A model generated the notes under the pieces. The model was given only the letters and a program-made list of their open reading frames with translations, ran no database searches and was not told where the DNA came from. Shown here piece after piece: positions 1 through 17,213 of a stretch of DNA of 29,272 bases (positions are counted from its first letter, which is position 1; each line of letters begins with the position of its first letter). The stretch is from Opitutales bacterium (GTDB lineage Bacteria > Verrucomicrobiota > Verrucomicrobiia > Opitutales > UBA9783): assembly GCA_024407725.1 (NCBI GenBank), contig JAKSVZ010000011.1:1-29272 (forward strand), given 5' to 3'. Position numbers and translations under genes: made by a program.

Positions 1-45
1 GAAAAAATCGGCAAAAACCCATCACTCGGTCTTCGCATCATTTTT

Positions 46-151
46 GCTTGACAGAGTAAAGGTTATGTTGTATTATTTATATGTAGGAGTTGGAAAGAGT
101 ACGTTGATTAAAGTTAATTTACTAAACAATCCCTATAATGTCAAGCTTTTT
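46..151. promoter_or_regulatory. Module 1 of a 100/101-bp inverted-motif unit that reads as two face-to-face sigma70-type promoters
   Basis: GCTTGAC at 46-52 and its reverse complement GTCAAGC at 140-146, followed by T5. Plus strand: TTGACA 48-53, 17-nt spacer, TATTAT 71-76. Minus strand: TTGACA 144->139, 17-nt spacer, TAAATT 121->116. An imperfect inverted repeat (82-92 / 127-137) lies between them. Confidence 0.45.
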
Positions 152-228
152 ATCTCATAAGCCCCATTGTAGCTAATCCAAAAATATCAATTTAAAACTT
201 ACCCAAAGAAAACCGCAAAGCATCCCAT

Positions 229-250
229 GGGTTGTTCGCCAACCCTTTAT
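229..250 (+). terminator. Weak intrinsic-terminator-like hairpin between module 1 and module 2
   Basis: GGGTTG 229-234, loop TTCGC, CAACCC 240-245, followed by TTTATAATT. The U-tract is short (3 T, then A/T-rich sequence). Confidence 0.3.
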
Positions 251-257
251 AATTGAT

Positions 258-361
258 GCTTGACTAATTAAGATTAATTAAGTACTATTTTCTTGCACAG
301 AAATAGAGACTTTTATCAATTAATATATTATAATTAACTGTCTCTATTATATCAAGCTTTT
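258..361. promoter_or_regulatory. Module 2 of the face-to-face promoter-like unit
   Basis: GCTTGAC 258-264 and ATCAAGC 351-357, followed by TTTT. Plus strand: TTGACT 260-265, 17-nt spacer, TACTAT 283-288. Minus strand: TTGATA 355->350, 17-nt spacer, TATAAT 332->327. Perfect 9-bp inverted repeat AATAGAGAC 302-310 / GTCTCTATT 340-348. Confidence 0.45.
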
Positions 362-548
362 ATTGATTCGTGCTTAACTAAACCTCAAAAAATATCCCAT
401 CATCGCTTAAATACGCCGCCCTCCATAGGGATATTCAGAACGTACAAAGTCTTAAACACTCAGGGGCTCAATAACAAAAAATCAACAAAAATCGGTAGGA
501 ATTAGAGTCGAAACCTAACTTAATGAATCGGCTCCGCAATCACTTTTG

Positions 549-652
549 GCTTGACTTAGAATGAAAATTTTATAAAATAATTTCTATTCTGTTACACCTG
601 CATGAACATTCAAGTTTATGTTACAGAATATAGCTCTGAATGTCAAGCTTTT
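549..652. promoter_or_regulatory. Module 3 of the face-to-face promoter-like unit
   Basis: GCTTGAC 549-555 and GTCAAGC 642-648, followed by TTTT. Plus strand: TTGACT 551-556, 16-nt spacer, TAAAAT 573-578. Minus strand: TTGACA 646->641, 17-nt spacer, TAACAT 623->618. Inverted repeat 585-596 / 619-630 with one mismatch. Confidence 0.45.
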
Positions 653-689
653 ATAGGAACAAAGCGAACAAACCTGCCCTGTTGATCAT

Positions 690-718
690 AAAAAAGCGCA
701 AAATGATAAAAATTTGCG
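690..718 (-). terminator. Intrinsic-terminator-like hairpin oriented for the minus strand
   Basis: On the minus strand: CGCAAA (718->713), 10-nt loop, TTTGCG (702->697), C, then T6 (695->690). No minus-strand gene or promoter is evident to its right, so what it terminates is unclear. Confidence 0.3.
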
Positions 719-724
719 AAACAG

Positions 725-756
725 GCTTGACGACATCCGGTACTTTCATCCATTGT
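725..756 (+). promoter_or_regulatory. Fourth GCTTGAC copy; candidate promoter of tRNA-Gly
   Basis: GCTTGAC 725-731 (TTGACG 727-732) lies 35 nt upstream of the tRNA. The only -10 candidate is weak (CATTGT 751-756, 18-nt spacer). There is no inverted partner motif downstream. Confidence 0.35.
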
Positions 757-766
757 TAATACAATT

Positions 767-841
767 GCGAGCGTAGCTCAGAGGTAGAGCGCTACCTTGC
801 CAAGGTAGATGTCGTGGGTTCGAACCCCATCGCTCGCTCCA
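767..841 (+). tRNA. tRNA-Gly (anticodon GCC), CCA encoded
   Basis: Cloverleaf folded by hand. Acceptor GCGAGCG/CGCTCGC, D arm GCTC-AGAGGTA-GAGC, anticodon arm CTACC-TTGCCAA-GGTAG, T arm GTGGG-TTCGAAC-CCCAT, discriminator T plus CCA. Confidence 0.95.
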
Positions 842-888
842 GGTTTTATTAAGTAGAACATAAGTTGAACAATGAGATTTAGGAGTGA

Positions 889-1686
889 GTGTCTATGTCA
901 ATGGGAATTACGCATTCCGTAGCGCCGTTAATTCAGGTTCGTAATTTAGTTAAAAACTACCATCAAGAACAAATCTTAAAATCCATCGATGTATCGATTG
1001 AAGAAGGAGATTTGGTATCCATTATTGGGCCATCAGGATGCGGTAAATCCACGTTTTTGCGATGCCTTAATGGGATGGAAATTCTCGATTCTGGTTTTAT
1101 ACAAATCGACGGAATAACCCTAGCGCGCAGTCCTAAAGCGAAAGCTGATAAATCCGATGCCCAATTCAGCAACACAGCGCATGCATTGCGGCAACACGTA
1201 GGGATGGTATTTCAGGCGCTCAATCTATTTCCGCACAAAACCCTATTGCAAAACGTTATGCTAGCCCCAATGGTAGTTCAGCATAAGAGCTACGACGAAG
1301 CGGAAGCGATTGCCCTTAATTTTTTGGATAAAGTAGGCCTAAAAGCCATTGCTCATCGGTACCCAGTACAATTATCTGGGGGTCAGCAACAACGAGGAGC
1401 CATCGCGCGCGCGTTGGCACTATCCCCCAAAGTAATGTTGTACGATGAACCCACATCAGCCATTGACCCGACGCGCGTAGACGAAGTTTTGGATGTTATG
1501 CGCACCTTGGATCAAGAAGGCATGACGCAAATCATTGTGACCCACGAAATGCGTTTCGCAAAAGACGCATCGGATTACATTATTTATATGGAACAGGGGC
1601 AATTCATTGAGATTTCGGATGAGGATGAGATTTTCATCAATCCTAAAGATGAACGCACGCGGCAATTCCTTAAAAAATTCATGTAA
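889..1686 (+). CDS. glnQ: Polar amino-acid ABC transporter ATP-binding protein (GlnQ/ArtP/HisP-like)
   Basis: Walker A GPSGCGKST, ABC signature LSGGQQQR, Walker B VMLYDEPTSAID, H-loop VTHEM. The ORF opens at GTG 889. The in-frame ATG at 895 lies 9 nt after AGGAG (881-885) and may be the true start. Confidence 0.9.
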   Translation: MSMSMGITHSVAPLIQVRNLVKNYHQEQILKSIDVSIEEGDLVSIIGPSGCGKSTFLRCLNGMEILDSGFIQIDGITLARSPKAKADKSDAQFSNTAHALRQHVGMVFQALNLFPHKTLLQNVMLAPMVVQHKSYDEAEAIALNFLDKVGLKAIAHRYPVQLSGGQQQRGAIARALALSPKVMLYDEPTSAIDPTRVDEVLDVMRTLDQEGMTQIIVTHEMRFAKDASDYIIYMEQGQFIEISDEDEIFINPKDERTRQFLKKFM

Positions 1687-3219
1687 ATGAAACGTATCAT
1701 CCAAGGAGTTTTTGTTGGTTTATTGCTCAATTTACAGGTTCTAAACGCTGAACGCGCGGTATTGCGTTGGGGAGGCGATGCAGAATCTGGGGTTCCTCAA
1801 ATCTTTTACGACGTTAAGGATTCAACCAAACTAACGGGGTTTGAGCACGAAATAGTAAAAGCTATTGCGGATTATCTGCAACGGGATTTGGAATTCATCC
1901 AAAACGACTATGAAATGCTTATCCCAGGGTTGCAACGCGGACAATACGATATAGTGATCAATGGGATGCAACGGAATAGTTGGGCTAACAAAGCACAAAA
2001 AGCGCATATTGCATTATCGGAACCCTATTTTATTACCACTTTAGCCGCAACGGTACGCGCTTCCTCCCGTTTCTTACGGTTTTCAGACTGCGTGCATTGC
2101 AAAATAGGAATTTTAAAAGCCACCGATCATAGTGCAAAAGCCGTTAAATTGCTTTCTGGGGCTCAAGCGGTTGTGTATGATGATGAAGCAAAAGCTTACG
2201 ATGATTTAAAGAACGGACGCATTGACTGTGTGTTATTGGAATACCCCGAATCATTCTATTATAGCCTCATCGACTCATCGGTACGGCTGCTAGAAGATAA
2301 AATCGCTCAATGCCCTTATTGTGCGGTTGTACGCAATAACGACCCTGAGTTGTTAAAGCAAATAAACGAAGCCATTCAGGCGTTAAAAGACAACGGCACG
2401 CTACAAGCCATTTATGAACGTTGGGGATTATGGAACGCCGAAACAGCAGCCTACTTTAAGACCACCCATGCGTCATTCGACAAAGCAACGGCTCTAAAAA
2501 GTTATACCAGCAGCCTACAATCGGAAGCAAATGATGAGCATTTTTACCTCCATGCCCTATCGCTTTTTGCACAAGCAGCGCTTATTACGCTCGGAATTTC
2601 ATTTACAGCTATGCTGCTAGCGCTCCTATTGGGCTTTGGAATCGCCATGATGCGTACCTATGCAGCCACTCCTTTGCAAAAACTAGCCGCTGTTTATATT
2701 GAAATTGTCCGCGGAATTCCTTTGTTGGTGCAGTTGTTTATCATCTTTTACGGACTCCCCAACCTAGCGCCTTATTTACCCAAAAGCTTCGAACCCTTCG
2801 TAATCCTCAATCCCATTATTGCCGCGATCATAGGGCTCGCAATCAACTATTCCGCTTATGAAGCAGAAATTTTCCGCTCAGGCTTTTTGTCCATACCGGT
2901 GGGGCAAATGGAAGCTGCGCGCGCTCTAGGAATGACTCATAATCAAGCCTTGCGATATGTAGTATTTCCGCAAACCGTCCGCACGGTATTGCCTCCGATT
3001 ACGAACGATTTCATCATGCTCATGCAAGATTCCTCGTTGGTATCCATGATTACCATCATTGAATTAACGCGCACCTATCAATTATTAGCGGCTTCTCGAT
3101 TTGATTATCTCTGGCTAGGAATTTTGGTTGGAATCTTTTATCTATTACTCGGATTGCCGTTTACCCGTCTCTCTCGTTTCTTCGAAAAGAAGTTAACGCG
3201 TCGTGTACAACGCTACTAA
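1687..3219 (+). CDS. Fused periplasmic amino-acid-binding domain plus ABC permease (GlnPH-type)
   Basis: N-terminal signal-like segment and family-3 solute-binding-like domain, then a multi-TM permease with an EAA-type loop (MEAARALGMTHNQALRYVVFPQ). The ATG abuts the glnQ stop (TAAATG). Confidence 0.85.
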   Translation: MKRIIQGVFVGLLLNLQVLNAERAVLRWGGDAESGVPQIFYDVKDSTKLTGFEHEIVKAIADYLQRDLEFIQNDYEMLIPGLQRGQYDIVINGMQRNSWANKAQKAHIALSEPYFITTLAATVRASSRFLRFSDCVHCKIGILKATDHSAKAVKLLSGAQAVVYDDEAKAYDDLKNGRIDCVLLEYPESFYYSLIDSSVRLLEDKIAQCPYCAVVRNNDPELLKQINEAIQALKDNGTLQAIYERWGLWNAETAAYFKTTHASFDKATALKSYTSSLQSEANDEHFYLHALSLFAQAALITLGISFTAMLLALLLGFGIAMMRTYAATPLQKLAAVYIEIVRGIPLLVQLFIIFYGLPNLAPYLPKSFEPFVILNPIIAAIIGLAINYSAYEAEIFRSGFLSIPVGQMEAARALGMTHNQALRYVVFPQTVRTVLPPITNDFIMLMQDSSLVSMITIIELTRTYQLLAASRFDYLWLGILVGIFYLLLGLPFTRLSRFFEKKLTRRVQRY

Positions 3220-3229
3220 TGGACTCGAC

Positions 3230-4123
3230 ATGTTGTATTACAATCGATACACGCAGGTCATTGAATCCGAATCAACGCCCAGCCATCGTTTACTCAAGTA
3301 TCTCTATGGCACCCCATTAGGGCGGATTATACTCCGTTTATTCCTCATCAAACCCATAACCTCGCGCTGCATTGGGTGGTGGATGTCAACCCGCCGCTCT
3401 AAAAAGCACATTGTGCCCTTTGCAAAGCGGTACCATATCGACTTAAATGCGTTTGAAAAAGCGCCAGAAGCCTATACTCATTTCAATGATTTTTTCTATC
3501 GAAAATTCAAACCAGAGCAGCGTCCCATTGATCCAACCCCCAATGCCCTTTGTTTTCCTTGCGACGGACGGCATTTGGGTTTTCAAACGCTAACCGATAC
3601 CCAACGTTTTTTCATAAAAGGCACCTCGTTTTCCTTAAAAAAACTACTGCAAGATGATGCCCTCTCTCAGCATTTTCACCAAGGAACCTGTGTTATTAGC
3701 CGCCTAGCGCCCATCGACTATCACCGTTTTCATTTTCCCTGCGATGGAATTCCTCAAGCCCCCAAAGCGATTCAGGGGCTATTGTATTCCGTTAATCCAA
3801 CCGCGCTTCAGCACAATTGGCGCATTTTTGCTGAAAACAAGCGCTGCCTTACCGTCATACAAACCCAAAGCTATGGGTTAATCGCCATGATTGAAGTAGG
3901 AGCGTGCTGCATCGGTAGCCTACAAGAAACCTTTCAGCCCAACCAATGCTACCGCAAAGGCGACGAAAAAGGATATTTTGCTTTCGGCGGCTCAACTATC
4001 ATTCTGCTGTTCGAAGCCCAACGGATACAATTGGCGCCTGACTTAATCAATTGCACTCAACACGGTTTGGAGCTCTACGCGCACATGGGCGATGTCCTTG
4101 GAACCGCCATTAAAAATCCATAA
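3230..4123 (+). CDS. psd: Phosphatidylserine decarboxylase proenzyme
   Basis: LAPIDYHRFHFP and the FGGST self-cleavage motif. The ORF opens at GTG 3203, overlapping the upstream gene by 17 nt. ATG 3230 (MLYYNRYTQ...), 10 nt after the upstream stop, is the more plausible start. Confidence 0.88.
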   Translation: MLYYNRYTQVIESESTPSHRLLKYLYGTPLGRIILRLFLIKPITSRCIGWWMSTRRSKKHIVPFAKRYHIDLNAFEKAPEAYTHFNDFFYRKFKPEQRPIDPTPNALCFPCDGRHLGFQTLTDTQRFFIKGTSFSLKKLLQDDALSQHFHQGTCVISRLAPIDYHRFHFPCDGIPQAPKAIQGLLYSVNPTALQHNWRIFAENKRCLTVIQTQSYGLIAMIEVGACCIGSLQETFQPNQCYRKGDEKGYFAFGGSTIILLFEAQRIQLAPDLINCTQHGLELYAHMGDVLGTAIKNP

Positions 4124-5108
4124 AATACCGATGGATTCCTTGTGCAATCGCGTCGGACAAAGTTCTTTGGTAGGCAGGGGATGCGCACTGTTTGCACTCT
4201 TGCGCATTGCTTAAAAACCCACATTCCACCAAAACCGATGGACAGGCGCTTAACCGCAACACCTTCAAATTCTCGCTTCGAACCCCACGGTCTTGCATCC
4301 TTAATGCGTTAATAATCCGTTTTTGGATGCACCATCCTAAGCACCGACTTTGGTCGTTAAAAGGATAGGCATAGCCCGGCATAAAATCGTCCGAAGATGG
4401 CGCACTGTGCGTACCCGGCTGCCCATACAAATGAAATACATAGGTTTCAATTCCTCGCGCAGATAAACTAGGTGCTGAATTATAATGAATGGATACCAAG
4501 GCATCTGCTTTATAGTTAGCGGCTAAATTCGCACGATCATCCAAGGATATATCTCGATCATCTTGGCGGGTTAAATACACTTTATACCCCAACGTCCTCA
4601 ATTTACTGGCTACTTGCAAAGCCGTTTTTAAGGTCAAATCCTTCTCCTTAACCCCATGCTGAATCGTGCCATCCTGACGTCCACCATGGCCAGGGTCAAT
4701 CACAACCGTACGGGTTTTCCGCTTTTGCTTCAGATTCAATCCAAACAAAGGCCGCAAATAATAATGGACATCCAACTGACGCACCCGACATTCAGCCATT
4801 CGCGTTGGCATACCTCCGACGCGTCCGCCTTCCATCGGATAGGTTAAAAAAATTTTAATGCCATCCAACAGCACCTGATTGCTACCCGGCGTTAACACCA
4901 TACGATGGCCGTTTTTCGTTAAAATCACTTGGTTGCTGACCAAACGACATTGAATCTGGTGCCTTTTAGCAAAGGTATCAATTGCAACCCAAGCATTAGC
5001 AGGGATAGGCTCCGAAGCGGTCATGCCAAAGGGGGTTCCTTGGACAATACCCAACGGGCATAACCAAGCCACCAAGCTAACCAAAATCAAATAAAGTTCG
5101 CGACGCAC
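4110..5108 (-). CDS. amiA: N-acetylmuramoyl-L-alanine amidase (Amidase_3, AmiA/AmiC-like) with signal peptide and N-terminal extra domain
   Basis: VVIDPGHGG ... EKDLTL ... GYKVYLTRQDD ... ADALVSIHYNS ... GIETYV pattern. Hydrophobic N-terminus. Lies 2 nt downstream of infC. The 3' end overlaps psd by 14 nt. Confidence 0.85.
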   Translation of the reverse strand: MRRELYLILVSLVAWLCPLGIVQGTPFGMTASEPIPANAWVAIDTFAKRHQIQCRLVSNQVILTKNGHRMVLTPGSNQVLLDGIKIFLTYPMEGGRVGGMPTRMAECRVRQLDVHYYLRPLFGLNLKQKRKTRTVVIDPGHGGRQDGTIQHGVKEKDLTLKTALQVASKLRTLGYKVYLTRQDDRDISLDDRANLAANYKADALVSIHYNSAPSLSARGIETYVFHLYGQPGTHSAPSSDDFMPGYAYPFNDQSRCLGWCIQKRIINALRMQDRGVRSENLKVLRLSACPSVLVECGFLSNAQECKQCASPAYQRTLSDAIAQGIHRYFMDF

Positions 5109-5110
5109 TA

Positions 5111-5701
5111 TTAAGCTCTGGGAGTATTATGCACCAAAACCCGTTTTTCTTTGGGTAGCGGAGATAATAGGACAGAAATATTCGGACCATTTTGCGCAAT
5201 CGATCCATCGGGAGACCCAACATTGGTTAGCGCATTAACCATCTTTTGTACCAACTCTCTTCCGCGCGCACTCAACGGCATCTGATATCGGCGCAAAAAC
5301 AACGAAATTTTAAGCTTATTTCCTTCATAGAGGAATTGCTCACCAGCTCTTAATTTAATACGGAAATCGTTTTCTTCGATCTGAACACCCAATTTAACTT
5401 CTTTTAATTTAGCGATGGTCGCTTTTTGCGATTTACGCTTCTTTTCCAAATCGTACTTATACTTACCCCATTCGATAATTTTGCAAACAGGCGGCTGTAC
5501 ATTGGGAGAAATTTCCACCAAATCTAACCCAGAACGTTGTGCTAACGACAAAGCGTCTTGGATGCTTAGCACTCCAATCTGCTGACCATCTGCTCCTATA
5601 ACACGTACGCTAGATGAACGAATTTGCTCGTTTCTTCGAGGCCCCCTATCCTTCATGGGGAATCGTCTAGGATATTTATTAAATACTTTCCCGGGCACCA
5701 T
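5111..5701 (-). CDS. infC: Translation initiation factor IF-3
   Basis: RRNEQIR-SSSVRVIGADGQQIGV ... GLDLVEISPNVQPPVCKIIEWGKYKY. An alternative in-frame ATG at 5656 (MKDRGPRRNEQIR) gives a more canonical N-terminus. Confidence 0.9.
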   Translation of the reverse strand: MVPGKVFNKYPRRFPMKDRGPRRNEQIRSSSVRVIGADGQQIGVLSIQDALSLAQRSGLDLVEISPNVQPPVCKIIEWGKYKYDLEKKRKSQKATIAKLKEVKLGVQIEENDFRIKLRAGEQFLYEGNKLKISLFLRRYQMPLSARGRELVQKMVNALTNVGSPDGSIAQNGPNISVLLSPLPKEKRVLVHNTPRA

Positions 5702-5734
5702 CGATTTTAACTAAAATTTCCATTTTATGGAGGT

Positions 5735-5764
5735 AGTATACGCCCACAGCTACCCTTTTGTCAA
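5735..5764 (-). promoter_or_regulatory. Sigma70-type promoter for infC-amiA
   Basis: Minus strand: TTGACA 5764->5759, 18-nt spacer, TATACT 5740->5735. The predicted transcription start is near 5728, upstream of the infC ATG at 5701. Confidence 0.5.
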
Positions 5765-5795
5765 AAACATTTTATCGCAGCCCATTGTCACCCAA

Positions 5796-5811
5796 TGGCA
5801 CAAATCCTGCT
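5796..5811 (+). promoter_or_regulatory. Sigma54-like -24/-12 element upstream of the T3SS operon (tentative)
   Basis: TGGCAC-aaatc-cTGCt has the correct GG-to-GC spacing (consensus TGGCAC-N5-TTGCW). It would start transcription near 5822, only about 7 nt before ATG 5829. A match this short could be chance. Confidence 0.2.
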
Positions 5812-5828
5812 GTTATTCATTCTGTTCC

Positions 5829-7907
5829 ATGGCAATAGGTCCCATTCTACCGAATCAATTAGCGCAACCCTTACAGGCCAATCCGATTCATGTCCTACCA
5901 AATCGTGCTGTGCCTAATCCCGTCAATAGCCTAGAGGACATTAGGAAACTGTATACCCATTACGTAGAATTATTCGGGAACGTAACAACCAAAGGCTCTT
6001 ACGAAAAAATTAGGGACAATATCCTCAAGCAGTTCAACACAGTCATTCAACCCGTCAGTGGGCATACTTATGGTTTCCCCTTAAAGCTTCAAAACATTCT
6101 TGACGATAATCCCCTGCCCCTACCTGAAGAAACCTGTTTGTTAGGGAACAAAGCCTACAAAGATCACATACGGGACGCAGTCAATCAAGCAAACTCACTC
6201 TATACTCTCATCGACCAAGCAAAAGTAGAATTGGATGCCTTAAAGGGGTTAATTGATGCGGAGGCTACGGATCAAGAAGCCATCCCATGCCTAAACACAT
6301 TAAGCATTCTAGAATCGCAAGCAAAAGAATCAACCAAAGCCTTTTCGGAATATTATGTAGTTAACTCAGGCAATGTAAGAACCTTTGCTTATGAACTATG
6401 GTTTGGTGAAGAAAAACTTCCCTTATTATCCAATCGAGCATTTACACAATACAACACAAAGGAACTTGATCTAACCCAAGAATTTACCTCCAAAATCACA
6501 GCCGACGATGCCAAATCGCTAGCAACCTTACGCGCCATACAAACCCAAAAGTATTACTACCCTGATGTGGTAGTGATCGATACCTATTACGTTGAACGGA
6601 GAAATGAAGAGGGGGAAGTAGAAAAAATCTTAACTGACCGCTTTGATCCTGACGCTCAGGTGGAAATAAATGCATATTGGAATGAATTTCAGACCCAAAC
6701 CTCTCCCATCGCCCTTTTTAACGAACTTACCTTACTCGATAGGCTTAAATACATTATTTTGTATTACACCCTAAACGGTGAACGTTCTGTACTCCCCAAC
6801 AATCCCAAAACAGGAATTCCTTGCATTCCAACTCCCCTATCAACCGATTACGTAAAAGATACAGAGGAAATCGGCAATGTAGAATTGTTTTTTATCGGTT
6901 ATTTAGTCAAACACTACAACGCTCTTTACGCACTTGCTTTGTTTATGGAAACAAAAGTCAATGCGTTGCTTTCCGTAACTAAAATGGTACAACGGCGCAT
7001 TAAAGCATTAAACTTTTACCTCAACCTTGCTAATCGCGGTTTTCAGGCACTTAATCAAAGTCAGGCCAATGGTAACGCTAGTATCACCAATGATGCGTAT
7101 TGCGTGCTACGTTATCTGGGAGCCAACATTACCCGTACATCCATAGAGATGACCATCAATAACTCAACCGATACCTACATTGTATTACAAGGTGTCTGTA
7201 ATACCCCAACAGCCGACGACCATCATACTGCAACAAACAATTATCTATTGCTCAAGGCCGATAATGATACCATCCAAAAGTTTTTCCAGCACGTAACAGG
7301 AGCAGGAAACAATTACCCTTATTATTATGACCATTTGTTCGATTACTCAAAAGGGCAAGCATGTACTTTAGAGAAAGCACCTCAATGGGGATATATGACG
7401 CAAGACGAATATAATCGGTTGATACAACAAGGATACAAAAAAACCGATCCATGCACCGTTGGAATAGGTTGTGCCACACAAGCTGTTCTAGGATACCCAC
7501 ATGTTTATCCAGCGTGTTTCCATTGCCGCCACAATAATAAAGGAACCATATGGAACAAAGGAAACCTTGATTCGATCTATGTTTTGTACGAGCCTGAACA
7601 GAATAATTTGCCTAAAGAATTAGAAACCAATCGCTTAAATATTGCCGATATATTGGTTGAAAAATACGCAGGTTCTGAAAACACTTGGAACAACTATAAA
7701 AACGACAACCAAGGTAGCTGGACTGCTTTGGTAAAATGTTGGACCACCGACTACCAAACCACCATTGAAAACATCAATACAGAAGTAACCTCCACGCAAA
7801 AAACGGTTTCAAACTATCGTAATAAAATAAGCAATTTTGAATCAAATGCAGCTAATTGCATTAAAAAGCTTAATCTCATGTACAATCAGGTCGTTAATAA
7901 AATATAA
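5829..7907 (+). CDS. Hypothetical protein, first gene of the T3SS chaperone/translocator operon (possible secreted substrate)
   Basis: Long uninterrupted ORF that opens at 5727. ATG 5829 is preferred because 5727-5764 holds the divergent infC promoter. Pro/Asn-rich N-terminus, predicted helical/coiled segments, a Cys cluster C576-x5-C582-x14-C597-x2-C600 (ORF numbering) and a C-terminal coiled-coil-like tail. The stop lies 5 nt before the chaperone ATG. I recognise no family. Confidence 0.65.
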   Translation: MAIGPILPNQLAQPLQANPIHVLPNRAVPNPVNSLEDIRKLYTHYVELFGNVTTKGSYEKIRDNILKQFNTVIQPVSGHTYGFPLKLQNILDDNPLPLPEETCLLGNKAYKDHIRDAVNQANSLYTLIDQAKVELDALKGLIDAEATDQEAIPCLNTLSILESQAKESTKAFSEYYVVNSGNVRTFAYELWFGEEKLPLLSNRAFTQYNTKELDLTQEFTSKITADDAKSLATLRAIQTQKYYYPDVVVIDTYYVERRNEEGEVEKILTDRFDPDAQVEINAYWNEFQTQTSPIALFNELTLLDRLKYIILYYTLNGERSVLPNNPKTGIPCIPTPLSTDYVKDTEEIGNVELFFIGYLVKHYNALYALALFMETKVNALLSVTKMVQRRIKALNFYLNLANRGFQALNQSQANGNASITNDAYCVLRYLGANITRTSIEMTINNSTDTYIVLQGVCNTPTADDHHTATNNYLLLKADNDTIQKFFQHVTGAGNNYPYYYDHLFDYSKGQACTLEKAPQWGYMTQDEYNRLIQQGYKKTDPCTVGIGCATQAVLGYPHVYPACFHCRHNNKGTIWNKGNLDSIYVLYEPEQNNLPKELETNRLNIADILVEKYAGSENTWNNYKNDNQGSWTALVKCWTTDYQTTIENINTEVTSTQKTVSNYRNKISNFESNAANCIKKLNLMYNQVVNKI

Positions 7908-7912
7908 ATCTT

Positions 7913-8464
7913 ATGTCTATCTCACTTACCCAATGTATCCGCAACGAAATTAAGGCGGTGTTAGGTCCAAAGGTTAATCTTAGCGATGAAGCAATCACCC
8001 GCAGCTTAATCACAGGGCACCTCCTATCCACAGGCAAATTGCAAGTAAAAGATATCATTCCCGTTCCACAGCAGCATCAAGATATGCTGTATGCTACCGC
8101 CTATGATTTTTTTCAAAAACAACAATATCAGGACGCTTGTCGTATCTTTAGCATCTTAAGTGTGTACGATCCACAACAAACAAAGTATTTAGAAGGTCTT
8201 GCAGCCACTTATCATCACTTAAAGCAACATAGAGACGCGCTGCTCATTTATTGTGCCTTAACCTTTATTGCCCCTGAAAATCTTGCTTACTTTTTACATT
8301 TAGCTGAAGAATTTTGCAAACTAGGGCAATTCCAACCCGCTATTAAATGTTGTGAAGCAATCGAGTGCCTTGCGAAAGAGGAACCCGTTAAATCCCATCC
8401 GGATACCGCTTCTTTCTTAAAACGTGCTAACAACCTTCGTACCATCCTAAACAAAAAAGCCTAA
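7913..8464 (+). CDS. Type III secretion class II (translocator) chaperone, TPR, LcrH/SycD/PcrH/IpgC family
   Basis: 183 aa. The core LYATAYDFFQKQQYQDACRIFSILSVYDPQQTKYLEGLAATYHHLKQHRDALLIYCALTFIAPENLAYFLHLAEEFCKLGQFQPA follows the SycD/LcrH TPR pattern by eye. It sits immediately upstream of a hydrophobic translocator-like gene. Confidence 0.8.
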   Translation: MSISLTQCIRNEIKAVLGPKVNLSDEAITRSLITGHLLSTGKLQVKDIIPVPQQHQDMLYATAYDFFQKQQYQDACRIFSILSVYDPQQTKYLEGLAATYHHLKQHRDALLIYCALTFIAPENLAYFLHLAEEFCKLGQFQPAIKCCEAIECLAKEEPVKSHPDTASFLKRANNLRTILNKKA

Positions 8465-8468
8465 TTTT

Positions 8469-9650
8469 ATGCCTCTTGACCTAGATCCATCTATTACTGC
8501 AAACCCCATGCAAGCGAATGAGTTGCCAACGGATGACGTATCCACGGAATCAACTCAAAACGTTGCTAAAACTCACCACCTAACAAAAACTGGAATATCG
8601 TTTATATCGGTAATTGAAGACCAAAGCTACGCTCAGGGAATATTCGAAAACCCTACGTTGAAAGCCCCAACCACTTCTTTAGCAGATGTAATGGCTACCC
8701 CAATAACAGTGTCTGCGGAAGTTGCCCAACAAATCGGGGTATCGTCCAACACAACTTTTTATGAATTTACTAAAGCTTGCCTCAGTAAAATTCAGGCACT
8801 CAACAATAATTCATCAACTCCAAGTACCAATCTCCTTGAAGGCGAAGATTTAGATTACCTCTGTACTTTATTAACCCTACAAGCTAAATCAAAACTGATC
8901 GCTGTTTTAAAGGAGACGCTTAGAGAGAAAATTAATTCCCGCAATGAGCTACAACAGAAATTTATTAAAGATCAGACTAAGTCAACTACTGATCAAGTAG
9001 AAGCAGAAAGAAAACGTGCAGAAGCAGCGCGTAAGGCAAAAAGACGCGGTATATTTGGCGCTATATTCGGAGCTATTGCTGCTATCGCTGCAGCGGTAGT
9101 AACGGTCGTTACCTTTGGAGCCGCTACGCCCTTAGCTGTTGCCGTAACCACTATGGCGATTTCAAGTGCCGTCCTTTGTACAACCGCTTCCGCATTAACC
9201 ATCGCCTCTCTATGCACGAATAATAAGGAACTCGCAGCAAAACTATCCTTAGCGTCTACCATTATCGGATGCGTTGGTGCAGCAGTAGGACTTGTAAGTT
9301 CTATTTGTTCCTTTAAGCTAAGTCCTCAGGATCTGGAAAAATTCGGTACCCTTCTAAAGATGATTTCCACAGGACTTTCATGCACAAATTCAGTCGTTAA
9401 CGGAACTTTTAGCATCCTTCAAGGAGCCGATCAAATGGAGCTAGCTGAACTAGAAAAAAAGATCGCGGAATATCAAGTTAAGATGGTTACAATGGATAAA
9501 GAAATTCAAACTCTATCCAAGTTTATTGATATGATCGTAAAATCAGTGGAAGAATTCATTAAGGACATGTTGTTAATCGAAGAACAAGGCCAACAGGTCA
9601 TGGAAGGAGTCCAAGACACTGAAAATGCATTGGCCAACAATTGCGTATAA
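8469..9650 (+). CDS. T3SS hydrophobic translocator (YopB/IpaB/PopB/CopB-like architecture)
   Basis: 393 aa. The PTLKAP motif at residues 62-67 matches the class II chaperone-binding motif PxLxxP. A coiled-coil-like segment is followed by a 56-residue hydrophobic hairpin (res 194-249, nt 9048-9215), a third hydrophobic segment (res 259-282) and a C-terminal coiled-coil-like region. The ATG lies 4 nt after the chaperone stop. Confidence 0.7.
   Translation: MPLDLDPSITANPMQANELPTDDVSTESTQNVAKTHHLTKTGISFISVIEDQSYAQGIFENPTLKAPTTSLADVMATPITVSAEVAQQIGVSSNTTFYEFTKACLSKIQALNNNSSTPSTNLLEGEDLDYLCTLLTLQAKSKLIAVLKETLREKINSRNELQQKFIKDQTKSTTDQVEAERKRAEAARKAKRRGIFGAIFGAIAAIAAAVVTVVTFGAATPLAVAVTTMAISSAVLCTTASALTIASLCTNNKELAAKLSLASTIIGCVGAAVGLVSSICSFKLSPQDLEKFGTLLKMISTGLSCTNSVVNGTFSILQGADQMELAELEKKIAEYQVKMVTMDKEIQTLSKFIDMIVKSVEEFIKDMLLIEEQGQQVMEGVQDTENALANNCV
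8652..8669 (+). other. Putative chaperone-binding motif PTLKAP (PxLxxP) within the translocator
   Basis: Codons cct acg ttg aaa gcc cca in the translocator frame. This resembles the IpaB PELKAP motif at a similar distance from the N-terminus (recalled from memory). Confidence 0.5.
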
Positions 9651-9658
9651 CTAACCGC

Positions 9659-11632
9659 TTACGCCTGATGAGTGCTTAAATACTGCTGAATGGCTTGAGC
9701 GCATGCTTCTGGGGTTAATCCCAAATGCTGGCGCAGCGCGCCAGCTGGCGCGCTTTTGCCGAACTGGTCTACTCCAATAACCTTCCCCTTTAGCCCCACA
9801 AATCGATACCATGGCAAAGCAGAACCTGCTTCAATTGCTATCCTGCACGTACAATCGGATGGCAAAATACGCTCTTGATAAGCTTCAGGTTGCTGCAAAA
9901 ACACTTCGCAGCAAGGCATAGACACCACACGAACGCCTGTGCCTAATTGCTGAGCTGTTTTTAGCGCTAAATCAACCTCGCTTCCCGTTGCAATCAGGAT
10001 GCATCGTAAGGCGTCCGTTTCTTTTAAAATAATATATCCCCCTTTATAGGCACCCTCCAACTTATCCTGACTAGGCACGGTGGATAAATACGGCAGTTCT
10101 TGTTTAGCAGCCACCCACACGCTGGGTCCTTCCGGAACATCCAACGCTTGTTGTAAGCACGCAACGCATTCATCCACATCTGCCGGTCGAAACACACGTA
10201 CATTAGGCATCGAACGCATACCGCATACTTGTTCAATCGGCTGATGGGTTGGTCCATCCTCGCCAACCGAAACAGAATCGTGCGTAAACACATACCAAAC
10301 CGGCAAATGCGCCATAGCCGCTACCCGCAACGCCGGTTTTAAGTAATCCGAAAAAACCAAGAATGCCGAACCACATACGTTAAAAATTCCATCATAGGTA
10401 ATACCGTTCATGATGGCTCCCATCGCATGTTCGCGCACGCCAAAGAATAGATTGCTGCCTTTTAGATTATCAGGAGCAAAATCCCCGCCTTGCGTTAAAT
10501 AGGTTTTGGTAGAAGCAAACACATCCGCACTGCCTGATAAAAACAACGGTGCTTGTTGGGCATACTCATTCAATAAAGCACCCATGCAGGCTCGTATTTC
10601 AATCGAACGTCTAAGCGACGGGAGGATGGCAAAATCCTTTAGCTTCAAACTAGGTTTGCTGCCCAACAAACGGGCTTTGTCGGGTTCTGCCGCTGTCCAA
10701 GTTTCAAATAGCGACGCCCACTCATTGTACGCTTTCTGCAATTGCCCTTCGCGTTTTTCAAAAAAACGCCGCGTTTCTTCAGAAACAAAAAATGATTTTT
10801 CAGGATCCAATCCCCAGATAGCCTTGGCCTGAACTCCATCCTTAAGTCCTTCCGCTGCATGCGCTTTGGAGGTACCTGCCACTTTCAGGCCATAACCAAT
10901 TACGGTGTTTAAAATAATCAATTTAGGTTTACCGCGCAACGAACGACAATGGTTCAACTGTGCTTCAATAGCCGTACAATCATGGCCATCGACCTCAAAA
11001 ACATCCCAACCGATCGACTCAAACCGTTTACGGACATCATCATTTTGAGAACATGCGCTCGGCCGATCCAACGTCACTTTGTTGCAATCGTACAGTAAAA
11101 TCAAATTATCCAATTGCCATAAGCCCGCCAATGCAATGCTTTCCTGCCCCATTCCTTCTTGCAAGCAACCTTCACCGCACAAACATACCGTACAAGCATC
11201 AAAGATTGGGGCATCCGGCGTATTGAACCAAGCCGCACATTTTTTTTGCGATAACGCTATGCCTACTGCATTCCCAATGCCTTGTCCTAAAGGCCCTGTG
11301 GTGGTTTCAACCCCTGAGGTTACTCCAAATTCAGGGTGGCCGGTAGCCTTACTGCCCATTTGACGCAAGGTCTTCAAATCCTCTAAGGAAATATCGTAAC
11401 CGCTTAAGTACAAAGCAGCGTAAAGCAAAGGGCTGCCATGCCCTGCCGACAATACAAAACGATCGCGATTTAACCAACGCGGATTTTTAGGTAAATAGCG
11501 TAAAAATTTGCCAAACAAAACCGCAACGCACTCAGCGCATCCCAACGGAAGCCCCAGATGCCCCGAATTTGCTTGAGCAATCATGTCGAAACACAACCCA
11601 CGGTATTCGTTTGCAATCGTTTTTAACTCCAT
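9659..11632 (-). CDS. tkt: Transketolase
   Basis: 657 aa. N-terminal SGHLG/GHGS ThDP-binding region, GEGCLQEG, and THDSVSVGEDGPTHQPIE. Confidence 0.95.
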   Translation of the reverse strand: MELKTIANEYRGLCFDMIAQANSGHLGLPLGCAECVAVLFGKFLRYLPKNPRWLNRDRFVLSAGHGSPLLYAALYLSGYDISLEDLKTLRQMGSKATGHPEFGVTSGVETTTGPLGQGIGNAVGIALSQKKCAAWFNTPDAPIFDACTVCLCGEGCLQEGMGQESIALAGLWQLDNLILLYDCNKVTLDRPSACSQNDDVRKRFESIGWDVFEVDGHDCTAIEAQLNHCRSLRGKPKLIILNTVIGYGLKVAGTSKAHAAEGLKDGVQAKAIWGLDPEKSFFVSEETRRFFEKREGQLQKAYNEWASLFETWTAAEPDKARLLGSKPSLKLKDFAILPSLRRSIEIRACMGALLNEYAQQAPLFLSGSADVFASTKTYLTQGGDFAPDNLKGSNLFFGVREHAMGAIMNGITYDGIFNVCGSAFLVFSDYLKPALRVAAMAHLPVWYVFTHDSVSVGEDGPTHQPIEQVCGMRSMPNVRVFRPADVDECVACLQQALDVPEGPSVWVAAKQELPYLSTVPSQDKLEGAYKGGYIILKETDALRCILIATGSEVDLALKTAQQLGTGVRVVSMPCCEVFLQQPEAYQERILPSDCTCRIAIEAGSALPWYRFVGLKGKVIGVDQFGKSAPAGALRQHLGLTPEACAQAIQQYLSTHQA

Positions 11633-11641
11633 AATGTTCCT

Positions 11642-13096
11642 TTAATGTTTAGCGTTTTTAGGGTCTGTAGGCTCCTGCTTAATGGCTTTATAATTTTTTT
11701 GGATCAAGCCAGACAATGTTTTTTGCGGATTTAAAACCAGCGATGCATCAATGACAAACGGCTCGCTGGTACCATTAGGAAACATCAATTTCAGTCCATA
11801 ACCCAAATCCTGAAACAGGTTATGGCATAAATCCGCTATAGACCTATCCTGAGCAATACTCTGCTTAATCAGTTCCTGAATCCCATCGTTCGAAAATTGA
11901 ATTTTTAACCCATGCTTTTCAACAAACTCTCGTTCATAAGCATGAATGGCTGCCAAGCGCTCCTCTTGCCCTTGAGACAAATGGGTTAATAACAGATCTT
12001 TTAAGGCCTTATCAGGATCGGCTACAGTATCCGTATTAACCTCAAAAAAATGAATACCCGACGAGGGAAGTTCGAACTTAAAATGGCGCAAAATCCGTTC
12101 AAAAATCGTCATTAAGCCGCGCGCCCCTGTTTTTTCTGCCTCTGCACGCGCTGCAATCTCATAAATGGCTTCGCGGGTAATCTCCATATTGATGTTATAC
12201 CCCTCGAACGCTTCCTGTGCTTGTTTCAAAATGGAACATTCGGTATCGGTCAGGATGCGCGCTAAATCCTCCTTGTTCAACGGCTCACACGTCACACGCG
12301 TGGGAATACGACCGATAAATTCTGGCTCAAAGCCGTATTTGATAAAATCCTGAGTGACCGCCTGATGTAAGATGTTGGTTTCATGAGTAGCATCTTGCGA
12401 TACACCAAAGCCAATGGTTCCTTTATTTAAACGGCGCTCAATGATTTCAGACAATTTATCGAACGCTCCACTAAAAATGAACAAGATATGGCGGGTATTG
12501 ATCACGGTTTTGCGGGGTGTATCGCCACGTTGCATAGCCATCATCGCTTGCATCTGACCCAGCATATCGGTCGGAGTCACCAAATTGACATCGGTATCCT
12601 CCATCAACTTCAACAAATTGACCTGAACGCCACGCCCAGAAACATCCTTACCTTGCGTAGGGGTTGAGGCAATCTTATCAACCTCATCAACGTAAATAAT
12701 ACCATACTGCGCCCAATCCACATCTCCATTAGCGCTTTTCACTAAATCCCGCACCAAATCTTCAACATCACCGCCCATATAGCCGGTTTCTGAAAACTTC
12801 GTGGCATCTGCTTTTAAAAACGGAACACCTATGCGCTTAGCAATGTTACGGATCAAATACGTTTTTCCAACCCCTGTTGGGCCTAAAACCAAGATGTTTT
12901 GTTTATAGTACAGTTGATCCTGTTTATCCGGTGACTGTAAGCATTGACGCACATGGTTGTAGTGGTCGCAAATCGCTACGGACAGCACTTTTTTAGCCTC
13001 TGTTTGCTTTACAACATAGCGATCCAAATACGCACATAAGTCTTTCGGTTTTAAATCAAAATCTTTAACTGATTGGGTAGCTGTTAGAGGGTCCAT
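11642..13096 (-). CDS. ClpX-like AAA+ ATPase lacking the N-terminal zinc-binding domain, with a C-terminal extension
   Basis: YLDRYVVKQTEAKKVLSVAICDHY, Walker A GPTGVGKT, pore loop GYMG, Walker B IIYVDEVDK, SGRGVQ, IGF-type loop TIGFGV, sensor-2 TGARGL. There are no CxxC pairs in the first 45 aa. About 165 aa follow TGARGL. Confidence 0.85.
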   Translation of the reverse strand: MDPLTATQSVKDFDLKPKDLCAYLDRYVVKQTEAKKVLSVAICDHYNHVRQCLQSPDKQDQLYYKQNILVLGPTGVGKTYLIRNIAKRIGVPFLKADATKFSETGYMGGDVEDLVRDLVKSANGDVDWAQYGIIYVDEVDKIASTPTQGKDVSGRGVQVNLLKLMEDTDVNLVTPTDMLGQMQAMMAMQRGDTPRKTVINTRHILFIFSGAFDKLSEIIERRLNKGTIGFGVSQDATHETNILHQAVTQDFIKYGFEPEFIGRIPTRVTCEPLNKEDLARILTDTECSILKQAQEAFEGYNINMEITREAIYEIAARAEAEKTGARGLMTIFERILRHFKFELPSSGIHFFEVNTDTVADPDKALKDLLLTHLSQGQEERLAAIHAYEREFVEKHGLKIQFSNDGIQELIKQSIAQDRSIADLCHNLFQDLGYGLKLMFPNGTSEPFVIDASLVLNPQKTLSGLIQKNYKAIKQEPTDPKNAKH

Positions 13097-13251
13097 AGAC
13101 GCATGAAATCACTCAATAAATAAGGATAGTCTCTTATGGCTAAGGTTCTAAACCATCCGATAAGCATAGGCAACCTTATAAACTTTAAGATTTGCCCCTT
13201 CCAACAATAAGTCATTTACTTTATTAAGAAATAATTTTCAGTAAAGATAGA

Positions 13252-14592: not shown

Positions 14593-15155
14593 AAAAGTTG
14601 ATTTCCATCATCCTGCTCATCCTCATCAACCTATGGCTTATGGGTAGCGGCTTAAGCAAGTGGATTCGCATCCACCGTTTAAGTTCAACCCAGTTGGTCA
14701 TGGCTTCTACTCCTGCTAAATTGAATGCCCTCAACACCAGTTATCGGGAAAAAATCTTTCCTTGGAAATCCTACATGCAGCTTCAACAATCCCAGCAGGC
14801 GTTAAAATCCCTGTTTAAGGCTGTACTCCTGCAAGAAATGCAATGGGGAGCTGCTACCCCCGATCCGCTTCGACCCAGAGTTTTTCGCCATCCAGTAACC
14901 ATCACAGGGTTTGTGCTCCATCTCGACTGCTATCCATTATTGGAAGCGCTCGCACATTCCAACTTACCTATTTGGGTTCAACAGTGCACCTTTCAACGCA
15001 ATGGGTTGTGCAATCAAGGATTACAGTTCACCTGCGCCCTACAGGTCGCTACGCTTACCGAAACAACCTCAATTGAGCCATCGAATCTGCATTCGCCGCT
15101 GAACCACTCGCGCGCAGCAAAGCAAACAGGGACAGCTCGGGATGCTCGCGAATAA
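14589..15155 (+). CDS. Hypothetical signal-anchored protein (GspM/PilO-like position)
   Basis: ATG 14589 overlaps the upstream TGA (ATGA), which suggests translational coupling. N-terminus MKKLISIILLILINLWLMG. The ORF track opens at 14565. The last 101 nt overlap the convergent exonuclease gene. Confidence 0.5.
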   Translation: MKKLISIILLILINLWLMGSGLSKWIRIHRLSSTQLVMASTPAKLNALNTSYREKIFPWKSYMQLQQSQQALKSLFKAVLLQEMQWGAATPDPLRPRVFRHPVTITGFVLHLDCYPLLEALAHSNLPIWVQQCTFQRNGLCNQGLQFTCALQVATLTETTSIEPSNLHSPLNHSRAAKQTGTARDARE

Positions 15156-15708: not shown

Positions 15709-15803
15709 TAAAATTTAACAGAATACAGAAACTGCATGCTTTTTAATTGACAAACATCCCATCTCATTTTTGATAAATTATCAAGTAAGTCGTTGGTTAA
15801 CAA

Positions 15804-15880
15804 GCACCTTTAGCTCAATTGGATAGAGCATCTGACTACGGATCAGAAGGTTGGGGGTTCGACTCCCTTAAGGTGCGCCA
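15804..15880 (+). tRNA. tRNA-Arg (anticodon ACG), CCA encoded
   Basis: Acceptor GCACCTT/AAGGTGC, D arm GCTC-AATTGGATA-GAGC, anticodon arm TCTGA-CTACGGA-TCAGA, T arm GGGGG-TTCGACT-CCCTT, discriminator G plus CCA. A TTGACA sits at 15747-15752 upstream. Confidence 0.95.
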
Positions 15881-17193: not shown

Positions 17194-17213
17194 GATTGGA
17201 TCGCAACCCGCTT

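Follow-up and report, generated by a model that had tools for sequence, protein, structure and literature searches.

The first 766 nt of the window, a 29,272-nt contig of an uncultured Opitutae bacterium, comprise three tandem modules of about 100 bp upstream of a glycine tRNA gene. These modules most likely make pairs of short non-coding RNAs that interfere with each other, which would make them a variant, specific to this lineage, of an established type of regulation. Our leading explanation, to which we give slightly less than an even chance, is that the region holds three tandem non-coding RNA genes on the minus strand, each with an embedded opposing promoter, with mutual exclusion between the promoters and pairing between the 5' ends of the transcripts. 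We infer the activity of the six predicted promoters, the RNA ends, the interference, and the regulatory output from the DNA sequence. As the window is a complete contig, starting at position 1, the array may continue past this position.

The motif GCTTGAC was found on the plus strand at 46, 258, 549, and 725 and on the minus strand at 140–146 and 642–648. The whole window contains eight copies (2.9 expected), six of them inside region 1–766. The first three plus-strand copies are each matched by an inverted partner, which in module 2 reads ATCAAGC (351–357), and TTTT follows directly after all three partners. The resulting modules span 46–146 (module 1, 101 bp), 258–357 (module 2, 100 bp), and 549–648 (module 3, 100 bp). 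The pattern CTTGAC-N80-95-TCAAG matched these three modules, compared to an expectation of 0.18 matches for the whole window. An earlier sequence-only reading of the region had reported these motifs, partners, T-runs, and spans, and all were located where it had placed them. Its description of the interiors as unrelated was also borne out: their mutual similarity was not significant in a shuffle test, and the right flanks were likewise no more similar than shuffled sequences. The sole case of marginal similarity in this test was between the left flanks of modules 1 and 3.

A consensus scan called two facing promoters in every module, each with 9–11 of 12 consensus matches and a spacer of 16–17 nt, recovering the six well-spaced -10 hexamers proposed earlier. 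The plus-strand promoter of module 1 has its -35 element at 48–53 (TTGACA), its -10 element at 71–76 (TATTAT), and a predicted start at about 83; the minus-strand promoter has these at 144–139 (TTGACA), 121–116 (TAAATT), and about 109, respectively. The corresponding positions in module 2 are 260–265 (TTGACT), 283–288 (TACTAT), and about 295 on the plus strand, and 355–350 (TTGATA), 332–327 (TATAAT), and about 320 on the minus strand. In module 3 they are 551–556 (TTGACT), 573–578 (TAAAAT), and about 585 on the plus strand, and 646–641 (TTGACA), 623–618 (TAACAT), and about 611 on the minus strand. Of the two sets, the minus-strand promoters are of higher quality: they have 10–11 of 12 matches and are preceded by an A-tract. 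On the plus strand, TTGAC(A/T) lies 16–17 nt from TANNNT in all three modules, while the remaining sequence is unrelated.

We compared this arrangement to a control set of 133 chance matches to GCTTGAC-N85-88-RTCAAGCTTTT from unrelated genomes and viral contigs. A TANNNT hexamer at 16–18 nt was present on both sides in none of the control matches and on one side in 16, as opposed to both sides in all three modules of the window, which rules out coincidence for the promoter pairing. No further promoter pair of comparable quality and spacing was detected in the 29-kb window or in 12 loci of relatives. When the control pattern was searched across 185,579 genomes, the matches listed were single matches in unrelated taxa. 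A stricter two-promoter pattern yielded 104 distinct sequences from metagenomes and viral contigs, none of them related to the modules of the window; some were coincidences in coding sequence, and some were genuine-looking convergent promoter pairs. In many of the latter, located on phage-like contigs, a single promoter had been duplicated in inverted orientation around a central hairpin. Control scans with other central gaps recovered 1, 8, and 25 loci versus 17, indicating that 100 bp is not generally favored as a spacing. Phage records showed no similarity to the region, and plasmids yielded one trivial 32-nt match only.

The modules are not free-standing. Each is part of a larger unit of about 180–290 bp that includes a minus-strand terminator-like hairpin, an organization newly recognized in this analysis. 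A hairpin with a U-run was found to the left of each GCTTGAC. In three of the four flanks tested, G-U pairs made its minus-strand fold much more stable than that of the plus strand, and based on this strand bias, we read it as a minus-strand intrinsic terminator. In the flank of unit 1 (1–45, minus strand), the stem at 36–11 (GCGAAGACC...GGGTTTTTGC, with two G-U pairs) is followed by CGATTTTTTC down to position 1. A terminator was called here by the consensus scan, and the folding energy was -13.6 kcal/mol on the minus strand versus -5.5 on the plus strand. Window positions 1–59 align with the homologous left flank of module 3 in two relatives (L314 and L316). The possibility that positions 1–51 represent the 3' end of an upstream DUF179 gene was rejected, as this non-coding flank aligns much better.

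The flank of unit 2 (202–257) is terminator-like on both strands. On the plus strand, TTTATAATT comes after a hairpin at 229–245 (GGGTTGTTCGCCAACCC); on the minus strand, a larger hairpin, which includes GTCAAGC, precedes GGTTTTCTTT at 213–204. The scan called a plus-strand terminator, and the two strands folded about equally well (-18.5 kcal/mol with z = -2.2 for minus, -14.5 for plus). The flank of unit 3 (476–548, minus strand) is a diverged paralogue of that of unit 1, with a weak hairpin (535–529 pairing with 515–509, including G-U pairs) followed by CCGATTTTTGTTGATTTTTT at 495–476 and a folding energy not above that of shuffled sequences (z = +0.5). The fold of 295–440, together with direct reading, revealed an extra minus-strand hairpin at 385–437, in which AATATCCC (435–428) pairs with GGGATATT (397–390) ahead of a U-run; this could be a second stop for the third RNA. 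The flanks of relatives also differed between the minus and plus strands (-16.9 versus -3.9 in L314, -25.0 versus -13.9 in L319; the lowest z was -6.7), and the flank terminator hairpin was the only consensus structure reported by RNAalifold. We rate the terminator as convincing in unit 1 and in module 3 of the relatives, moderate in unit 2, and weak in unit 3. Flanks 1 and 3 are homologous despite unrelated interiors, as would be expected if constraint acts on functional elements only.

Three minus-strand RNAs are predicted from these elements. RNA 1 (2–109, about 105 nt) would extend from the module 1 minus promoter to the terminator at 36–2, RNA 2 would cover 204–320 (about 110–115 nt), and RNA 3 would cover 476–611 (about 120–135 nt, or longer if read on to 385). 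A further minus-strand hairpin with a U-run at 690–718 (CGCAAA...TTTGCG CTTTTTTATG) is located directly upstream of the tRNA promoter. It is nearly invariant among relatives and was called a terminator in L314 and L319; no promoter feeding it was found.

According to the leading explanation, region 1–766 would be a tandem array of three diverged units with one short non-coding RNA gene each on the minus strand. Every gene would have a strong sigma-70-type promoter (a TTGACA-like -35 element after an A-tract and a -10 element at 17 nt), a transcribed stretch of about 100–135 bases, and, immediately past the plus-strand GCTTGAC, an intrinsic terminator. Each gene would also contain a strong plus-strand promoter that points the opposite way and starts 26–27 nt from the minus-strand start. 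The usual footprint of RNA polymerase reaches from about -55 to +20. With starts this close, two polymerases would be unable to occupy both promoters of a module together, making the module a putative mutual-exclusion or transcriptional-interference device. The RNAs of one module would be complementary over their first 26–27 nt; the predicted overlap is 26–29 nt in the orthologues of module 3. The head-on sigma-70-type promoter pairs and 5' overlaps proposed in the sequence-only reading thus stand as predictions, backed by the scan, the chance control, the use of GCTTGAC as the -35 element of the tRNA-Gly promoter, and the conservation of module 3, but the proposal was incomplete in that it missed the minus-strand terminator units. 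No plausible target of the predicted RNAs was identified.

Conservation was assessed in syntenic relatives with about 91% nucleotide identity. Module 3, the sole module with clear orthologues, was kept with both promoters in L314, L316/L320, and L319, with orthologue lengths of 99, 100, and 102 bp overall. The module length, called fixed in the sequence-only reading, is therefore not entirely invariant. The consensus scan called both module 3 promoters in L314 and L319. Between L314 and L316, the promoter blocks were 100% (left) and 92% (right) identical, compared to 66–75% for the interior, and the plus promoter block was identical in L314, L316, and L319. Overall, the promoter blocks of module 3 were about as conserved as coding DNA, although they could be conserved as RNA sequence instead. 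The interior hairpins of the window modules were not conserved in the module 3 orthologues (z of -0.5, -0.3, and +0.8), leaving a structured antisense RNA unsupported. Modules 1 and 2 had no clear counterpart in relatives, so that conservation of the promoters and their spacing was seen for module 3 only.

The array is evolutionarily labile: relatives have a single intact module, a decayed module, or a deletion, and copy number and integrity vary between strains. L315 has lost the plus-strand -35 element and the flank hairpin and kept the minus promoter. The second unit in relatives is decayed, with the minus promoter still kept, and in L316 and L320 it is deleted between identical 22-nt tRNA trailers. 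The losses in L315 and the deletion in L316 and L320 suggest that the system is dispensable or decaying in some strains. In more distant relatives (L135–L145, with ABC transporter ATPases 77–81% identical), the tRNA and a TTGAC -35 element were kept, and no modules were found.

The tRNA-Gly(GCC) gene is located at 767–841 on the plus strand (ARAGORN; Rfam score of 70.4 bits). Its promoter region (725–766) starts with the fourth GCTTGAC, which serves as the -35 element 42 nt ahead of the tRNA. A TTGAC(A/T) element at a matching distance was kept in close relatives and in the distant relatives L135, L139, and L142, and the distance from the GCTTGAC-type element to tRNA-Gly ranged from 42 to 47 nt in the window genome and its relatives. 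The module 3 plus promoter, which has the GCTTGAC -35 element in common with the tRNA promoter, is 176 bp upstream of it. Since no plus-strand terminator was found between this promoter and the tRNA, it probably also drives tRNA-Gly(GCC) and the ABC-transporter operon from upstream, and the facing minus promoter could throttle the read-through. The neighboring genes encode the ABC transporter and type III secretion functions, a housekeeping context, with no candidate regulator gene adjoining the region. A second tRNA-Gly, with anticodon CCC, is present at the locus in relatives. Both the window contig and a Logan contig break at this locus.

Region 1–766 had been described as free of open reading frames. 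This is correct for ORFs of at least 60 aa; shorter ones are present. ORFs of at least 20 aa were examined, shorter ones were judged by eye, and no small ORF was common to the modules. The ORF at 640–759 was the sole one that stayed open in relatives, yet its substitutions were spread evenly across codon positions and it was frameshifted or stopped in L319 and L315. The region of minus-strand RNA 1 contained no conserved ORF. Small proteins and type I toxins were rejected given that no conserved peptide was found and that ORF 640–759 showed no codon-position bias. A search against Rfam up to E = 10 returned nothing credible in 1–766, and ARAGORN detected the tRNA-Gly at 767–841 only, with no tRNA in the modules; a tRNA remnant and a known Rfam family were rejected on these grounds. 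A miniature inverted-repeat element (MITE), such as a Correia element, was rejected as well, as the inverted repeat is only 6–8 bp and the interiors are unrelated. No further copies were found in the window or in the 22-kb loci of relatives.

We consider it unlikely that the minus promoters alone are functional. The modules would then be three sibling small-RNA genes that do not fire head-on, and what resembles promoters on the plus strand would be either conserved RNA sequence or relics of duplicated tRNA-Gly promoters. The higher quality of the minus promoters fits this explanation, as do their persistence both in L315 and in relatives whose second unit has decayed and the specificity of the terminators for the strand of the minus RNAs. 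However, the plus-strand elements keep their spacing in all three modules amid unrelated sequence, and the plus block of module 3 is identical in three relatives.

It is likewise improbable that the region is non-functional debris. In this case, a unit comprising a terminator, a GCTTGAC promoter, and tRNA-Gly would have been duplicated repeatedly, recombined, and decayed between a pair of tRNA-Gly genes, leaving promoter copies in both orientations. Such an origin would be in line with the fourth GCTTGAC being a tRNA promoter with a left flank of the module kind, the second tRNA-Gly(CCC) in relatives, the deletion between tRNA trailers, the differences in copy number and integrity between strains, and the contig breaks at the locus. 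Against it, six near-consensus promoters at constant spacing would not be expected while all else is randomized, the promoter blocks of module 3 roughly match coding DNA in conservation, and neither ARAGORN nor Rfam detected tRNA similarity.

A more elaborate version of the promoter-pair explanation, for which we see only a small chance, is that the modules are self-contained two-state toggles, each loading a single polymerase at a time. They would encode three sRNA/anti-sRNA pairs, the members of which neutralize each other via module-specific 5' duplexes of 26–27 nt; the pairs would be orthogonal, given that the overlaps differ in sequence without any relation between modules. The array could then gate read-through into tRNA-Gly and into the amino-acid transporter operon. 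Alternatively, a shared promoter–terminator chassis could present three distinct 5' seed regions. The fast-changing interior in relatives would in either case reflect a specificity segment that is diversifying.

A structured RNA of about 100 nt within a longer plus-strand precursor is very unlikely. It would be closed by a 7–8 bp GCUUGAC/GUCAAGC stem with a U-run after it and would be either a processed RNA or terminator-like. The full modules did fold with a closed terminal stem (plus-strand z of -2.2 to -3.8), and a T-run follows every right-hand motif. However, terminal pairing is inherent in an inverted repeat, both strands folded equally well, and the internal structure was not conserved in orthologues. 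Moreover, the end motifs change without compensation in relatives (GTTTGAC is paired with ATCAAGC, and L315 has a deletion of the left motif), and the six -10 hexamers would be left unexplained. Least probable of all are paired sites of a DNA-binding protein that recognizes GCTTGAC/GTCAAGC, an option raised in the sequence-only reading: inverted 7-mers at a constant distance of about 100 bp (about 9.5 helical turns) in three modules could suit looping or nucleoid organization, but only the TTGA(C/T) core persists in relatives (GTTTGAC, ATCAAAC, ATCAATC, ACTTGAC), as for a -35 element, every copy has a correctly spaced -10 hexamer beside it, one copy is plainly a tRNA promoter, and no candidate regulator gene is adjacent.

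The convergent promoter pairs were compared to known systems. The switch promoters of phages 186 and P2 are face-to-face, tens of bp apart. The modules resemble such lysis–lysogeny promoters in being close, convergent, and of unequal quality, so that each promoter, when it fires, should inhibit its partner. The earlier analogy to switches of temperate phages did not hold further: no repressor or operator was found, the promoters do not serve a pair of genes, the minus transcripts are predicted to end about 100 nt away at terminators, and the neighbors are housekeeping genes rather than phage genes. The mechanisms of transcriptional interference (sitting-duck, collision, and occlusion) have been reviewed and modelled (PMC5001618). 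The antisense RNA of IS10 is 69 nt long, and its first 35 nt are complementary to the beginning of its target (PMC5006887). The pIN–pOUT pair of IS10/Tn10, producing RNA-IN and RNA-OUT, and the modules share opposed promoters with transcripts that overlap at their 5' ends only; in the window, this overlap is predicted at 26–27 nt, and one RNA partner would be about 100 nt. In contrast to IS10, there is no transposase, controlled ORF, or IS end, conservation is lacking for the defining stem-loop of RNA-OUT, and three tandem copies have unrelated overlap sequences. An IS10-like stem-loop antisense RNA was rejected because the window hairpins, whose loops hold the opposing start, are not conserved and the overlap contains no translation start.

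Other systems share the tandem organization. Sibling small-RNA genes in tandem include LhrC1-5 of Listeria, OmrA/OmrB, and PrrF1/PrrF2, and such siblings normally share a conserved seed or body. Like these, the modules would form a series of short non-coding genes that have individual predicted promoters and intrinsic terminators and probably arose by duplication; in contrast, the bodies of the modules are unrelated, each has an internal opposing promoter, and no Rfam match was found. For the sRNA gene array considered earlier as an alternative, there are predicted promoters for all three copies and terminator-like hairpins of uneven quality, and no shared seed or body. Type I toxin–antitoxin loci (Ldr/Rdl, Zor/Orz, AapA/IsoA) are tandem pairs of small sense and antisense RNAs, often intergenic; the modules are similar in their predicted 5' overlap but lack a small hydrophobic toxin ORF. 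Stable-RNA operons have tandem promoters of the rrn P1–P2 type. The module 3 plus promoter is in tandem with the tRNA promoter in the same manner, except that a strong opposing promoter lies between the two and that modules 1 and 2 are parted from the tRNA by terminator-like hairpins.

If the modules are decaying promoter duplicates, they illustrate the duplication and erosion of tRNA-promoter units between paralogous tRNA genes. If both promoters fire, they would be natural, compact 100-bp mutual-exclusion promoter pairs, repeated in tandem and making non-coding RNA only. Such pairs would not belong to a phage, plasmid, or insertion sequence but would immediately precede a tRNA and a nutrient-uptake operon, and would offer a clean system for transcriptional interference and 5'–5' antisense pairing, free of coding function. 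To our knowledge, almost nothing is known about RNA-based regulation in Opitutae (Verrucomicrobiota), and the modules would provide a first glimpse of it.

The plus-strand copies of GCTTGAC at positions 46, 258, 549 and 725 are seen directly in the sequence. On the minus strand the motif lies at 140–146 and 642–648, and the third partner is ATCAAGC at 351–357. The pairs span 101, 100 and 100 bp (modules 1, 2 and 3: 46–146, 258–357 and 549–648), their interiors share no significant similarity, and the observation made in the sequence-only reading is confirmed. Six of the eight GCTTGAC copies of the 29-kb window fall within its first 766 bases, with 2.9 copies expected for the whole window; the relaxed pattern CTTGAC-N80-95-TCAAG recovers the three modules, with 0.18 matches expected. 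All six promoter-like sites proposed earlier were called by a consensus scan (9–11 of 12 matches, spacers of 16–17 nt), the better hexamers and an upstream A-tract belonging to the minus-strand promoters. In our own scan, the rest of the window yielded no promoter pair of comparable quality and spacing. Unrelated genomes and viral contigs supplied 133 chance matches to the outer motifs as controls; TANNNT at promoter spacing occurred on one side in 16 of these and on both sides in none, but it occurs on both sides in all three modules.

The modules are as claimed, but each is embedded in a larger unit whose left-flank hairpin had been overlooked. Each plus-strand GCTTGAC has an A-rich stretch and a hairpin on its immediate left; read on the minus strand, these form a hairpin that runs into a stretch of U. 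The consensus scan called the unit 1 hairpin a minus-strand terminator (stem 36..11). Four module flanks were tested, and in three of them the minus strand folded much better, because several pairs are G-U (z relative to shuffled sequences down to −6.7), with −13.6 versus −5.5 kcal/mol in unit 1 of the window, −16.9 versus −3.9 in the related locus L314 and −25.0 versus −13.9 in L319. Unit 2 has a moderate terminator, with similar folding on either strand, and unit 3 of the window a weak one, although 437–385 holds another minus-strand hairpin plus U-run. Positions 1–59 align over their full length with the left flank of the relatives' module 3, and paralogy can be recognised between the flanks of units 1 and 3, though not between the interiors. 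Across units, RNAalifold returned the flank hairpin as the sole consensus structure. Given these hairpins and U-runs, the minus promoters look like those of discrete RNAs of about 100–135 nt.

Syntenic loci (L314, L315, L316, L319 and L320) were reached via the transketolase cluster and are about 91% identical to the window across 537–19988. Their gene order is a DUF179 gene, tRNA-Gly(CCC), a variable spacer, one intact module, tRNA-Gly(GCC) and the ABC operon. The intact module, 99–102 bp long, is the orthologue of module 3; between genomes its interior is 66–75% identical, against 84–100% for its two promoter blocks. Both promoters of the module 3 orthologue were called by the consensus scan in L314 and L319; deletions in L315 removed the plus −35 and the left flank and kept the minus promoter. 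No clear orthologue of modules 1 and 2 was found in the syntenic relatives. Thus, the ends and spacing of one module are conserved, contrary to the outcome that the sequence-only reading had named as refuting it, whereas the array overall is labile.

L314, L315 and L319 retain a second unit in decayed form (GTTTGAC ... ATCAAGC/ATCAAAC/ATCAATC; 96 bp in L314), whose plus −10 is weak. In L316 and L320 it is deleted between identical 22-nt tRNA trailers; there, the trailer ccaggttttattaagtagaaca follows tRNA-Gly(CCC) (reverse complement ~21137–21234), as it does tRNA-Gly(GCC). The common trailer and the missing unit indicate recombination between paralogous tRNA-Gly genes. Within module 3, L314 differs from L316 and L319 (95–97% identical overall) by a patch of multiple substitutions and indels lying exactly between the predicted opposed starts (an interval of about 25 nt), with flanking promoter blocks 92–100% identical among these very few sequences; a template-switch event or a locally raised mutation rate could account for it. 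The plus-promoter spacer of module 3 (window 573–590 region) is a perfect 16-bp palindrome in relatives (TAGAATAATAATTCTA in L314) and a G-U-compatible variant of it, TAGAATGAAAATTTTA, in the window, and may serve as an operator or form a small hairpin.

Downstream of the array lie tRNA-Gly(GCC) (767–841; ARAGORN, Rfam), an operon for an amino-acid ABC transporter, a phosphatidylserine decarboxylase gene, and genes for a chaperone and translocon of type III secretion. The GCTTGAC at 725, the fourth, precedes the tRNA by 42 nt and is the −35 of the tRNA-Gly promoter. Distant relatives (ABC ATPase 77–81% identical) lack the modules, but their copy of this tRNA has TTGAC(A/T) equally far upstream, which anchors GCTTGAC as a −35 element in the lineage. 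Directly upstream of the tRNA-Gly(GCC) promoter, 690–718 is occupied by an intrinsic terminator on the minus strand (CGCAAA...TTTGCG CTTTTTTATG) that is nearly invariant, with counterparts at 20903–20924 in L314 and 15124–15145 in L319; neither the tRNA nor the sequence after it showed a minus-strand promoter that could feed it.

As the window is a complete contig with the array at its end, the array may extend past position 1. Logan contig L134 (1–6), from a strain with an ABC-transporter ATPase 98% identical at the protein level, begins 6 nt before the tRNA. Assemblies seem to break here, which suggests repeats or strain polymorphism. Elsewhere, a segment of about 1 kb (19988–20970; G+C 35% versus ~45%) lacks nucleotide homology to the relatives, which are otherwise 91% identical; it covers an ORF of 325 aa on the minus strand (19985–20962) and probably represents a strain-specific insertion or replacement. 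For the transketolase, the nearest named relative comes from an Opitutae metagenome-assembled genome. The type III secretion genes (7913–9650; L135 13230–15320 in relatives) encode a SycD/LcrH-type chaperone and an SseC-like translocon, with an SctV/FHIPEP-family gene in more distant relatives; their presence in an Opitutae-affiliated genome hints at a host-associated lifestyle.

The array contains no ORF of at least 60 aa, and its short ORFs are not common to the modules. A 39-codon frame at 640–759 is open in four relatives, frameshifted in L319 and stopped in L315; these disruptions and substitutions spread evenly over the three codon positions ruled it out as coding. Rfam returned nothing for 1–766 even at E = 10, ARAGORN found no tRNA-like gene in the array, and no phage or plasmid similarity was detected. 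In the window, each plus transcript is predicted to start with a hairpin that has the opposing start in its loop, recalling IS10 RNA-OUT; the hairpin is not conserved in module 3 orthologues (z −0.5, −0.3 and +0.8) and was set aside. Whole modules fold with the GCUUGAC/GUCAAGC stem closed, a pairing that the inverted repeat itself provides, that works on both strands and that shows no compensation in relatives. ATGTAGGAGT (81–90, module 1) resembles ATTTAGGAGT (877–886) at the ribosome-binding site of the ABC ATPase gene, to which the 5′ part of predicted minus RNA 1 (…ACUCCUACAU…) would be complementary at 9 of 10 positions, a match that chance may well explain.

A search pattern with both promoters compulsory retrieved many convergent pairs from metagenomic and viral contigs, none related to the window modules. 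Several are clearly real, with one promoter inversely duplicated around a hairpin and repeated in phage-like contigs (L163, L275). Control scans at other spacings gave comparable counts, so there is no general 100-bp class. In phage-like metagenomic contigs (L163 1–2443; L275 7130–7270; L149/L278), several inward-facing copies of one strong promoter, tttttcGCTTGACA-N17-TATAAT, surround GC-rich hairpins, sometimes back to back, in a recurrent architecture. The convergent pairs of metagenome contigs L155, L152 and L177 have a palindrome, TTGTCGACAA, in common at their centre; it resembles an operator set between promoters that face each other.

The interpretation offered by the sequence-only reading is supported in part only. 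Each unit would be a short minus-strand non-coding RNA gene with an opposing promoter embedded in it. The predicted opposed starts are 26–27 nt apart in the window and 26–29 nt in orthologues. An RNA polymerase open complex covers about −55 to +20; at this spacing, two footprints would overlap by some 12–15 bp, favouring mutual exclusion and transcriptional interference of the sitting-duck or occlusion type, known from convergent promoters (PMC5001618). RNAs from one module, if made, would pair over their 5′ ends, resembling IS10, in which a 69-nt antisense RNA uses its first 35 nt for pairing (PMC5006887). The module 1 plus transcript would stop at the hairpin at 229–245. No plus-strand terminator was found between the module 3 plus promoter and the tRNA, and this promoter could double as an upstream promoter of the tRNA and operon, throttled by the opposing one. 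As a whole, the mechanism of minus-strand RNA genes, embedded opposing promoters and interference is a tentative proposal, to which we give slightly less than even weight. The two main alternatives, activity confined to the minus-strand genes and modules that are decaying duplicates of the tRNA-promoter unit, both seem unlikely to us, and about equally so. Judged from sequence, the array is best placed, as an unproven and lineage-specific variant, among cis-antisense small-RNA loci with convergent promoters rather than in a new category.
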